Positions 30,765-35,423 of a DNA stretch of 64,000 nt are shown in pieces. This stretch comes from a bacterium (GTDB lineage Bacteria > UBA8248). The stretch covers positions 352,001-416,000 of the forward strand of contig CBDBBI010000010.1 of NCBI GenBank assembly GCA_965202625.1. Reading direction: 5' to 3'. The notes under the pieces are model-generated. The model saw only the letters and a list, made by a program, of their open reading frames with translations. It did no database searches and was not told where the DNA came from. The stretch's first letter is position 1. Each line of letters starts with the position of its first letter. The position numbers and the translations under genes are program-made.

Positions 30765-31285
30765 CTATTTTGGATATCGTCCCCAGCCTGCGATATGGCT
30801 CCTCAGGTAGTAAATTTGTCCCATGTGAGAGAGATGGTCGCCGAAGTATCGGCCCAATGCCAAGCCAATCTTGATGCGCTCTGCGCCGGCGAAATCGGTT
30901 TTTCCCTCATCGAGGTCCGCCGCGCGTAATTCCAATAGGCAGGCGAGCGTTTTCTCGCGTAGGTACTCAAAGTAGCCCCGCAAATTTGTTGACTGTGAGT
31001 GCTAAGACCTGCTCGAGCGTGTCGCCCATGCCGTCTCGGTTAGGCTCTGGCGCCATGACGAAGCGCTCGTGCCATCTCGCCGCTATCCAAATCTGCGAGG
31101 TTTCGCTGATAAATGAGAATGTTCTGTCCTCAAAGCGTTTCATATGTCAGATGAGCCAGCCCATGGTGTTGTCGTTTGTCCGGGTTGAATCGTGAAGTCC
31201 GTGCGTCCCTGACGTCTTCCACCGCTTCTCGAAGCCTTATGCCATAGACGTTCAGGCGTTGGGAAATGAGTGTGGGGGCGTCCAT
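30765..31285 (-). pseudogene. DinB/YfiT-family protein, disrupted
   Basis: NTMGWLI*HMKRFED (Trp codon replaced by TGA at 31149-31147), WHERF and HLSHMGQIYYLR pieces spread over several frames. Confidence 0.75.
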
Positions 31286-31362: not shown

Positions 31363-32055
31363 CTAGATCGCTGTGCTAGCGTGAGCGGTGAATATGTTGT
31401 GCTCCATTTTGGGCTTGCCCTCGAACGCAGGGTCCTCGTTCACCATCTTGGCCAGATATTCATCGACGTGCTCGGCGTTTGACCAAGTGCATTTGTAGGC
31501 CACTTTCTCGTCTTTGCCGATCAGCCAGACGGTGTTCGGAAGGTCTCCGAGCATGGCGTGGACCTTTTGATCCATCTCATCGACCAGGACGTTGGTTTTC
31601 ATTTTTTTGATATAGACTAACTCTTTGGCATAGATCAGCTTATGCTCATAGGATTCATGATTTCTGATCTCGGGGAATCCACGCTCGCCCGCGTGAGGTT
31701 CCCTGACGTAGAGATTGAATACGACGACATCGCGCTCCGCGTATTTTTCCTGCATTTTTTCATAAAACGGCACCTGCCGCCGGTAGGGAGGTCACGTAAT
31801 GGCACCCGTGGTGACCACCATGTATTTTTTGCCCAAATAATCCCCCATACAGTGGAGGTTGCCGTGAATGTCCTTGAGAGCGAAATGGGGAAAAGTACTG
31901 CCCGGAGGAAGAAGGTCTGGAAATTTGCCGTAGAAACTTTTCACCCGCTTACTCGTGACGAGTTTGATAGTTTTCCAAAGGTTCAGATATTGCCAGGACC
32001 AAAAACCCGCCATCGGTCCCCATGGTTTTGAGGCGAAGTCGTTGGCTGGTCGCAT
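31363..32055 (-). CDS. Deiodinase-like thioredoxin-fold selenoprotein (Sec88)
   Basis: ORFs 31792-32142 and 31363-31773 are in frame across one TGA (31794-31792), reading TGAIT-U-PPY; YVREPH and VDEMD motifs; AAGGAG RBS before ATG 32055; SECIS-like hairpin follows the TGA. Confidence 0.85.
31766..31781 (-). promoter_or_regulatory. Bacterial SECIS element candidate
   Basis: GGCGGC-AGGU-GCCGUU stem-loop starting 10 nt after the UGA, loop beginning after 16 nt; GCAGGU resembles the E. coli fdhF SECIS apex. Confidence 0.7.
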
Positions 32056-32584
32056 AGCGAGGAACTCCTTTAAGAGAGACGCTGGGTTAGTAGGAATGAT
32101 GTACGTTCCATTTTTTCTACCCAATCCCGACGTGAAAGACAACCCCAGGGGATGTGCGTTTCATCCTCAGGCGTGTGAAGGAATGGATTTGTATCCTGAG
32201 TTTCCATAGCGTTTTGCTTGAAGCATACAACGTCCTTGGGAAATCGAATACCAGTTGGCGTTTCGCCTGAAAGTTGAAGCGTCTTTGGGGGGGGGGAGGT
32301 TCCGACCTTTGGTTTCTCTCGCTTCAAGACGGCGCGTTGGTTTTTTCTTTTTGCTTGTTTCGCCTCGGTTTTTTTCGGCTCTTCGTTTCACTGGCGGCTT
32401 TGGGCAGTGAATCGTCCGGCAGCTCGAGTGCGCTCGACGAAGGCCATCGCGATCTTTTTGTCTCTGGCGGGCTATTGTCTATGATTGAGTCTCGAAGGTT
32501 TTGGGGGCGAACTGAGCGCTCGTTCTGCGCCCGTGCATCAAAGACCGCGTTCTCAAGCGCCGCTTTTAAGTCCTTGGGCTTCCT

Positions 32585-33095
32585 CTAGGCTGCTTTTCTC
32601 GTCAAAGGTTGTTCTTCGCCTTTCATGCGCATGGGTTTGGTTTTCAGGTCATCAATGCGGCGATAAAAGCCTGGGCTATGGGGCGTGGACGGTATTCCGA
32701 GTAGTTTCCTGTCGATGTGGTTCATGAGTTCATGCATGAGGGTATCGAGAAACGTTTTGCCTGCGACGAATTGTTTCCGCACGGCCGTCAAGGTTGGCGA
32801 TTCCAATCGTCCCGCTTTCAAAGTAATAGACGCCATGTTCATTATACGTGAGCTTCCCCGCGCGCAGCTTGTGGAGTTGTCGTCCATCCAGTACGCGCAA
32901 GCACGCGGGTTGAATTTTAATGGCGCGACAAATGTCGTTGAGTAGTTTTTGTCCCAAAGCTTCGCGCTCCTACGTGTCCCTAGACACGATAAACCTCCCG
33001 ACAAGTTCGCAGGTTTGCGCTGATGGTTGATATTTTAGGGAGAATAGTTTGTTGGAACGGATGAAATCCGGCGTATCGTGGCGACGCTTGCCCAT
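32585..33095 (-). pseudogene. Zincin/SprT-like metallopeptidase-family protein, disrupted
   Basis: In-frame TAG at 32972-32970, frameshift near 32790, HExxH eroded to HELMN followed by PHSPGFY. Confidence 0.55.
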
Positions 33096-33211: not shown

Positions 33212-34249
33212 CTAATCCGTCTCCAATATTTCCTCAATCGTCACTATCCTCCTCTCGGCGTTGCTTTTCAGCATCGCTCGCATGATGGCGAGCGCTCGAA
33301 CACCGTGGCGTCCGGTAACTTCTGGGTCTCTGTCTTCTTGAATGGCTCCGACCAAATCGTCGAATTGCTCCCGGTTGGCCAGGAGCCTCCCCTCCACCAA
33401 ATCGTGGTCGAACGCTACGGTTTGCGTCTCCACGCCGCCCATCATGTCGACTGGTCGCTTGAGAGTCGGGTTTTCGGTTGCCGAAAGGCTTAGGTTCGCT
33501 TGCGTGCCTTGGACCTCAAAAGCGAAATGGAATGGAGCGAGGTAACTTCCGGAGATGGTTCCTAGAAGTCCGCTTTTGAACCGTAAAATAGCAGCGGCGG
33601 CATCCTCTTGGGGGTTGGGGCCGCCTACTTTGGCACATGAGGCGCTCAAATCGGCCACTTCGCCGAACAAGTATTCCATCACGTCCCCGAGATGGATGGT
33701 ATAGCTGTAAAGTGGCCCGCCCGGGTTCTCCGTGGCGTCCCATCTCATGCTTTTGGGGCCTGCAGTGAAGCCGTGGTTGTTGGAAAACGTGGCGACCGTG
33801 TAGTTCACCAACCCCAAATCTCCGTTTTCCACAATTTCTTTCGTTTTCCGAAACATCGGCCAGCGCCTGAAATTCTGCCCTATATGGAGTTTTACGCCAC
33901 AATCCCCGCAGACCCGCTCGATGGTTTGCGCATCAGAGACGCTCAGCGCCATAGGTTTTTCTAAGTGAATGTGTTTGCCTGCGCGCGCGGCTGCTATGGC
34001 AATTTTTTTGTGTGCGGAGTTCGCCGTGGCGATGACGACGGCAGACGTGTCCCCATCTAAGAACACCTCATCAAGAGAGGCAAAATTTTTGCCGCCATAT
34101 TTAGAGACAAACTCTTCCCGTGAGGAGAGTGTGCGCGCGAAGCCCCCGGTCACTTTCACTTTCCCTGAGGCGAGGGCGGCGTCCGCTAGGACGGCGCCCC
34201 ACCAGCCCAGCCCGATGAAGGCCATGCCGATTTTAGGGAGATCGCTCAT
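33212..34249 (-). CDS. Gfo/Idh/MocA family oxidoreductase
   Basis: IGLGWWG and GKHIHLEKPMA motifs. Confidence 0.9.
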   Translation of the reverse strand: MSDLPKIGMAFIGLGWWGAVLADAALASGKVKVTGGFARTLSSREEFVSKYGGKNFASLDEVFLDGDTSAVVIATANSAHKKIAIAAARAGKHIHLEKPMALSVSDAQTIERVCGDCGVKLHIGQNFRRWPMFRKTKEIVENGDLGLVNYTVATFSNNHGFTAGPKSMRWDATENPGGPLYSYTIHLGDVMEYLFGEVADLSASCAKVGGPNPQEDAAAAILRFKSGLLGTISGSYLAPFHFAFEVQGTQANLSLSATENPTLKRPVDMMGGVETQTVAFDHDLVEGRLLANREQFDDLVGAIQEDRDPEVTGRHGVRALAIMRAMLKSNAERRIVTIEEILETD

Positions 34250-34300
34250 CCTATTGGCTCCTTCTCATATTCAAAGCGGGCGGGAAGGCGTATGCACACT

Positions 34301-35072
34301 CTAGCGGCTACGCCAGTTGGGTTTTCTTTTTTCCCTAAAGGCTGCCAAACCCTCTCGCGTGTATTCGGATGTCTGAAGACGATGGCTGATGAGTTTGGCC
34401 ATGCTGATGCCCTCGCGCCAGTCGGGCGTTTGCAAACCTTTGAGCAGTGCCTCTTTTGTGGTCGAACCGCCAAGGTCGCATTTTCGTTGATGAGGGTGGC
34501 CATGGCGCGCGCCTCGTCCATCAAAGTCTCATGGGGTGCATTTTTGTTCACCATGCCCCAGCGCACGGCCTCCTCCGCAGGGATGTTTCTACCGGTCAGC
34601 ATGAATTCCATGGCGATGCCAGGAGGTATGGTTTTGGGCAGATACTGGTGTCCCCCCCCCCCAGATTCATCGCGCCATATTTGGGTTGCGGGTGACCGAA
34701 AGTGGCGGTTTCTGAGGCGATTCTGAGATCGCACGAGAGTACCAGCGAACATCCCTCGCCAAAGGCGTAGCCGTTCACCGCGGCGATGGTAGGTTTATAA
34801 ATCTCGAGTTCTCCATGCCACATCGTGGGCGAATCATGATCTTTATATTGGCCTTCGCCCTCCACGATCATGGAGGGGTCGTGGCTCGAACAAAACGCGC
34901 GATCGCCGGCTCCGATGACAATGGCCGTCCACGCCTCGTCGTCTTTGGCGAATTTTTGCCAGGGGTCATATAGTTCACCCACTATTTCTTCGTTGTAGGC
35001 GTTGAGTTTCTCGAGCCGTTTTAGGGTGATGGTGGTGATTTTATCTTTCACCTCATAGATGATGATGCCCAT
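34301..35072 (-). pseudogene. Enoyl-CoA hydratase/isomerase (crotonase), disrupted
   Basis: KPTIAAVNGYAFG, CDLRIASE and REGLAAFREKRKPNW in three segments; frameshift at a G11 run (34652-34662) and a 1-nt deletion near 34462; eroded AFCSSHD motif. Confidence 0.85.
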
Positions 35073-35423
35073 CAGTGATTCTCCAGGCTCGATTTGGCAG
35101 GCGTGATCGATTATGTTCATTGGGCCGAAAGTAGCGATGCCGGAGCTTTAAGTCAAATGTTTAAGGATGATATTCCTCTGGCCCCTTGGTTTTTGATGGT
35201 AAGCGGGGAGGGTGCCTTCTTCTCATGGATTTCACCGGAGGGTTCAGAAAGCGGACTCTGATCGCGCGACGATATGGCACTTCACTTTGTGTGCTGTCCA
35301 TTCGGCGTTTTCTTGACAAGTTTTAGCCTGGGTACTAGCGTCGCCTTGAAAATTCGATCTTTTAATCTATTTAGAAATACTTGACATTTTTTGTTTATAA
35401 CTTTTTTTAAGGAGAAATACCCC

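Follow-up and report, generated by a model that had tools for sequence, protein, structure and literature searches.

Two short open reading frames on the minus strand of a bacterial contig meet at a single TGA, which raises the question of whether they form one selenoprotein gene and, if so, which reaction its product would catalyze. The locus lies in a stretch of 64,000 nucleotides (the window, to which all positions refer unless a genome is named). An earlier note, made from the sequence alone, had joined the two frames across the TGA at 31794-31792, and its coordinates, frame and motifs were confirmed. The ordinary genetic code splits the gene (31363..32055, minus strand) into open reading frames of 87 and 136 amino acids. 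The read-through frame runs from an ATG at 32055 to a TAG at 31365-31363, holds this one in-frame TGA, and encodes 230 amino acids with the motifs TGAIT-U-PPY, YVREPH and VDEMD...LPNTVWLI...VAYK. An AAGGAG ribosome-binding site (32065..32070, minus strand) is visible 5' of the ATG, and a GGAG/GAGG-type site precedes the same Met in most homologs. No sigma-70-like promoter was found on the strand of the gene, and searches of the window with Rfam (at gathering thresholds) and ARAGORN found nothing.

A contig from RNA-library run X1 of another study, which covers 31714-31973, is identical to the window, and a run X8 contig agrees with it at the TGA. The TGA is therefore not an assembly error. Pieces of the gene are present among the contigs of all three RNA runs, but the broken neighbour is covered as well, so these contigs cannot show transcription. 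The same interruption is evident in the protein collections, where 35 of 36 near-length matches are C-terminal pieces of 127-137 residues, and 54 of 66 short proteins (a set that includes C-terminal pieces) have as their last residues GA(I/V/L)T or GS(I/V/L)T, which directly precedes the TGA. The split gene call recurs across the phylum, and annotation by read-through corrects it. One short family fragment in these collections is labelled candidate division NC10.

The TGA (31792..31794, minus strand) corresponds to residue 88 and aligns with the catalytic Sec of Dio2 and Dio3. Among the genome loci (L001-L082), 55 distinct matches cover this residue and 54 of them have TGA, the lone exception being a GAC at 24% identity; two partial matches lie outside the site. 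In metagenomes, 36 of 37 loci cover the residue, with TGA in 34 (38-83% identity) and Cys in 2 (27-32% identity). Of 150 distant proteins that were aligned, 127 cover the site and 114 of these have Cys. A stop at the catalytic position is always TGA and in frame, down to about 38% identity. The earlier note had expected Cys or Sec here, and the homologs agree, with TGA in nearly all close loci and mostly Cys in distant relatives; replacement by a non-Cys residue did not occur among the close loci, the divergent GAC locus aside. Purifying selection is similar in the two halves of the gene (dN 0.06-0.13 versus dS 0.7-1.8, seven pairs), and the gene itself is unbroken in a genome where both flanking genes are frameshifted. 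In a quick tree the 33 Sec rows fall on one side of a branch with a support of 99; the tree is silent on the direction of transfer because its rows were picked by similarity and animal deiodinases were left out.

The genome (3.09 Mb, 99.7% complete) carries selA, selB, selD and a 97-base tRNA-Sec, and thus the complete sel set that the earlier note had called for. Its selD holds one in-frame TGA itself. The genome is not recoded, since it has RF2 and TGA is its commonest ordinary stop, at the end of 574 of 1,140 long frames. Across the phylum selA was found in 49 of 51 genomes, the two misses being 79% and 67% complete.

The hairpin GGCGGC-AGGU-GCCGUU begins 10 nt 3' of the TGA, where the earlier note had placed it, and forms the six-pair upper stem-loop of a bacterial SECIS element (31766..31781, minus strand) with an AGGU loop, that is, a stem-loop just 3' of the UGA with a G in a small apical loop. 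Folded as a single sequence it has no stability beyond that of shuffles (z +0.74, +0.17 and +0.90 at three lengths), so its weight rests on conservation. Over 49 distinct 45-base stretches, 91.8% of 294 cells are paired and 14 double changes occur; none of 500 shuffles scored as high, although kin among the 49 stretches are not independent. A control slid by +1 pairs only 55.8% of the cells, yet its covariation score is alike (0.226 versus 0.213).

The choice of codons agrees with this conservation. Of 54 genes, all 54 have CAG for Gln94 (background 74%) and none has CGC for Arg93 (41%); Leu95 is TTG in 13 of 13 (12%) and Val95 is GTG in 40 of 41 (43%). Synonymous divergence, compared over 223 windows of codons, is lowest at codons 93-97 (0.08, median 0.33). 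A second dip, 0.098 and thus close to this minimum, lies at codons 174-178 (about 31522-31536).

In the metagenome genes, scored in a fixed register, the stem has at least five pairs in 21 of 34, three pairs in 7 and one pair in 6; these last six, judged by eye, form a six-pair stem with a five-base loop. As a chance control, 94,503 TGA triplets were collected from the six frames of the genome, and four of them are followed, at this register, by a stem of at least five pairs that carries an AG(G/T)T loop. Three of the four are the selenoprotein gene, its paralog and a UxxC thioredoxin, of which only the thioredoxin counts as an independent match because the loop motif was defined from the family itself. 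This unrelated thioredoxin (G000:C10:2008438-2008836, plus strand) has a W-U-S-T-C site with the same SECIS stem, loop and distance, and its N-terminus resembles a signal peptide. The hairpin is conserved among the UGA-bearing homologs, and the contrary result, a lack of such conservation, did not occur. UGA88 is almost certainly read as selenocysteine, judging from these comparisons, and would be translated by means of the hairpin 10 nt downstream and SelA, SelB, SelC and SelD. The earlier proposal that gene callers had broken up one intact Sec gene is thereby supported.

The read-through protein passes the Pfam cut-offs for the deiodinase family PF00837 (36.2 bits, cut-off 27), AhpC-TSA (31.3 bits) and Redoxin (33 bits); the first two are the profiles that the earlier note had pointed to. 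A paralog scores 59.7 bits against PF00837. The best NCBIfam match is NF038285, "deiodinase family protein", at 56.1 bits, far under its cut-off of 250; all 118 aligned rows match this model of 347 positions at E <= 0.001. The predicted structure is confident throughout (pLDDT 95.7, pTM 0.92), and the two halves form one domain. When the family profile was compared with solved structures, mouse Dio3 (E 4e-15) and Dio2 (1.5e-13) were the two best matches. Dio3 was also top in the structural comparison (Z 17.1, rmsd 3.1, 166 aligned), where the Z values of Dio3, disulfide isomerase, DsbE and Bcp all lie within 1 unit (17.1-16.1). Dio2 and Dio3 have the highest query TM-scores among the matches listed (0.58-0.59), and ResA comes first in the Foldseek ranking by E-value. 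The deiodinase-like fold claimed before is upheld by these profile and structural matches. The animal enzymes Dio1-3 (PDB 4tr3/4tr4, 9h48) share with the clade the Trx fold, a Prx-like N-terminal module and a His-containing insertion, whereas the clade SECIS lies inside the coding region, unlike that of animal Dio.

Active-site residues were mapped with alignments to Dio structures and a published account (PMC11592359), and their conservation was counted over 33 Sec rows. The deiodinase-type insertion (residues 116-133, 31657..31710, minus strand; Y116, E119, H121, F127, H133) aligns to the Dio3 loop, is five residues shorter, and has its Tyr, Glu and two His in 33/33. Six residues are named for the proton relay of Dio2 (PMC11592359); five of them (Thr, Tyr, Glu, His, His) are invariant here (33/33), and the sixth, the Ser three before Sec (Ser127 equivalent), is Ala in 32/33. 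Sec is followed by Pro-Pro in both the clade and the Dio enzymes, and the next residue is Y in 24 rows, F in 6 and A, T or S in 3, which gives the clade motif UPP(Y/F). A Dio1-like Pro is found at 173 where the others have Phe224/258, and the equivalent of Pro173 in Dio1 opens the cleft (PMC11592359). There is no Cys at -2 nor at the position of Dio3 Cys239, and a second Cys is not conserved, with Cys in 2 and 8 of the 33 rows at the other columns where it occurs. Most of 85 more distant relatives, mainly of the Cys type, have the same Thr/Tyr/Glu/His/Pro-Asn/Trp set; it thus predates the Sec clade and is no mark of deiodination as such.

The Trp-rich N-terminal extension, described as unusual in the earlier note, is a clade-specific module. 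Residues 1-49 (31909..32055, minus strand) are rich in Trp and other aromatic residues and basic (net charge +6, hydropathy maximum 0.31), with predicted helices at 14-23, 26-34 and 36-47. P11 and F45 are invariant and W19, S20 and Y23 are at least 90% conserved in the 33 rows. The animal Dio have an N-terminal transmembrane helix and the clade protein does not, since the highest 19-residue hydropathy is 0.57 here and at most 1.09 across the 33 rows. A profile of residues 1-49 matches clade members only among the proteins fetched, and no homology was detected to the extensions that Cys-type relatives have at the N- or C-terminus (hhalign probability <1%). A subfamily is thereby outlined that has one Sec, no resolving Cys, its own N-terminal module and at least three paralog groups.

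The earlier note remarked that selenoproteins of this deiodinase-like kind had been noted in bacteria before, and they have been catalogued since 2005. They were described in that year with a suggested redox role (PMC1088965), counted in 2008 in a table without a motif (PMC2398784), and entered in review tables of 2022 and 2026 with the motif UxxC and an uncharacterised function (PMC9312934, PMC13188914). The present clade has in common with this prokaryotic "deiodinase-like protein" family PF00837, the in-frame UGA at the catalytic site, the bacterial SECIS and Cys homologs. It differs from the tabulated motif, to which the comparison is confined, by UPP(Y/F) without a conserved second Cys. 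Some sequences of the 2005 family may belong to the UPP(Y/F) clade. In BSepDB, three of the top ten genomes, with 48-54 selenoprotein genes, are from UBA8248 (PMC13326102), and one UBA8248 genome named there has a homolog that is 73% identical (L024). The word "deiodinase" occurs 0 times in the main text of the BSepDB paper (PMC13326102) and deiodinase goes unmentioned in deep-Sep. Our literature search yielded no description of the UPP(Y/F) clade, although figures, BSepDB entries and most of the BSepDB supplement may hold one. In the open-licence literature we found no paper that assays a bacterial deiodinase-like protein.

The product would be a soluble or membrane-surface enzyme of the thioredoxin fold with one redox residue. 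By analogy with the animal deiodinases, we tentatively favour a deiodinase-type dehalogenase of a small halophenol-type compound. The selenolate would attack the halogen of an activated aryl halide, and the Thr87-Tyr116-Glu119-His121-His133 network would protonate the ring. As no second Cys is conserved, the selenium would be re-reduced by an outside thiol or by a partner of the thioredoxin or AhpD type. The basic Trp-rich N-terminal helices may take the place of the membrane anchor of deiodinases or form a cap over the pocket. Dio3 and Dio2 as the best solved relatives, the five invariant relay residues, the Dio1-like Pro173 and the absence of the rival motifs argue for this reading. We found no precedent in the literature for a thioredoxin-like debrominase, and no consistent dehalogenation or aromatic-degradation neighbour genes among the loci compared. 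In 2 of 25 genome loci a gene resembling haloalkane dehalogenases, with a score under its cut-off, is found immediately upstream, probably as one event since the two neighbourhoods are near-identical.

Possible reductants were considered in the same genome. Among genes for low-molecular-weight thiols, gshB and mshC are under cut-off, bshC was not found in the genome, and one gene of the glutamate-cysteine ligase family is present. A broad scan of the genome for UxxC/CxxU with a hairpin gave 226 matches, mostly chance and usable as a lead only. They include several AhpD-like CxxU candidates, four or five with a common GGTC loop, as well as DsbA-like and Prx-like UxxC candidates (G000:C10, e.g. 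851711, 1628544, 1312554, 1150619, 777208, 499912), which may be reductants.

The same Sec protein could instead be a one-Sec peroxidase or a general thiol/sulfur oxidoreductase at the membrane surface, acting on lipid hydroperoxides, mixed disulfides or sulfenyl adducts, a reading that we consider a serious one though short of probable. A redox role was the proposal of the 2005 paper (PMC1088965). The AhpC-TSA and Redoxin scores over their cut-offs fit such an enzyme, as do the structural near-tie with Bcp, DsbE and ResA and the occurrence of the family in several copies, phylum-wide and without pathway context. TlpA/ResA/DsbE oxidoreductases and BCP peroxiredoxins have the same fold (Z 16-17), but the clade lacks the CxxC (UxxC) pair of the former and has an extra Glu/His insertion for which these enzymes have no need. 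The Pro at the usual thioredoxin position is shared with these enzymes. There is also no Arg at 174/175, which we take to be the place of the peroxiredoxin catalytic Arg. The peroxiredoxin motif PxxxTxxC/U (PMC13188914) is likewise absent, with Val at -7 and the same Ala at -3.

A true iodothyronine or halotyrosine deiodinase that acts on host amino-acid derivatives is improbable. UPP(Y/F) agrees with the active site of Dio2 and Dio3, and mouse Dio2 shares RQLP after it. The Glu-Arg pair is conserved in all three Dio isoforms (PMC11592359), but Glu225-Arg226 is lost in 33/33, with Asn or Thr and a non-basic residue in its place (N174 in 31/33). The position of Dio Arg275/Lys241 is Trp (W191) in 33/33, as placed by counting three residues beyond the end of the alignment; the loop is shorter and the transmembrane helix is absent. 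Halotyrosines are disfavoured because these Glu-Arg and Arg/Lys equivalents are replaced by Asn-hydrophobic and Trp; as substrates, halogenated amino acids are less likely than small, hydrophobic compounds of the halophenol type. It is hardly credible that the locus is a pseudogene or consists of two small genes, of 87 and 136 aa, separated by a terminator-like hairpin: both flanking genes are frameshifted, a terminator scan flags the hairpin with a T-run and the databases hold the halves separately, but the T-run is lost in more distant homologs, the in-frame TGA persists at the catalytic position to about 38% identity, like purifying selection acts on halves that form one confident predicted domain, and the genome is not recoded.

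The profile of the family has 1-4 matches in each of 49 of the 51 genomes of the phylum (probably UBA8248), among them 29 of 29 of high quality. UBA8248 has been proposed as Spongiamicota and is reported to be most abundant in sponge metagenomes, including those of Aplysina aerophoba (PMC11920076), and sponges make brominated metabolites (PMC12203066), which fits the dehalogenase reading. A wider form of the dehalogenase reading, which we regard as doubtful, is that phylum-wide, multi-copy, soluble one-Sec dehalogenases strip Br or I from natural halophenols without cobalamin or flavin in this abundant, sponge-associated and marine lineage. Presence in nearly every genome of the phylum is easier to reconcile with housekeeping than with host chemistry. 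In favour of the dehalogenase reading, 10 of 51 phylum genomes have corrinoid-type reductive dehalogenases that score over cut-off; against it, 0 of 22 genomes of the genus have them. The two genomes without a family match, G038 (99% complete) and G062 (90%, 740 contigs), both carry them, G038 the most; this is a weak hint, as eight genomes have both and G062 is fragmented. If the dehalogenase reading is true, deiodinase chemistry would be demonstrated for the first time in a bacterial enzyme, the marine halogen cycle would gain a route, and the protein could serve as a model for the ancestor of thyroid-hormone deiodinases, with a bearing on deiodinase origin. The protein is in any case a small, soluble and confidently modelled candidate for the old question of what bacterial deiodinase-like proteins do.

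No conserved operon was found, and neighbours vary between families and paralogs. At 16 of 25 genome loci the selenoprotein gene is followed by a DinB/mycothiol-transferase-like gene in the form of a single unbroken match. In the window the DinB-like gene (30765-31285, minus strand) is in three frames with two frameshifts, and its decay looks real because the contigs are free of gaps there. Luciferase-like oxidoreductases often lie nearby, at the window locus on the opposite strand. Upstream, a conserved unknown gene (32240-33095, minus strand) has no Pfam or NCBIfam match and one frameshift in this genome; it has a HELMHH-type motif, which we take to suggest a zinc site. An enoyl-CoA hydratase-like gene (34246-35120, minus strand) apparently consists of two overlapping frames and is a single 255-aa frame in relatives.

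A second paralog in the same genome, L032 (G000:C10:982684-983298, minus strand), is 41% identical, 212 aa long, has the same TGA and hairpin, and lies between GNAT and MFS genes. In family f4 (L029, L063, L066, L081) the gene adjoins selB-selA, tail to tail, and in G042 some 1.4 kb of other sequence interrupts the f4 gene. L082 (G030:C4:369292-370395) comprises two distant paralogs in tandem (about 25% identity); one has an in-frame TGA, and in the other an Asp aligns to the catalytic site.
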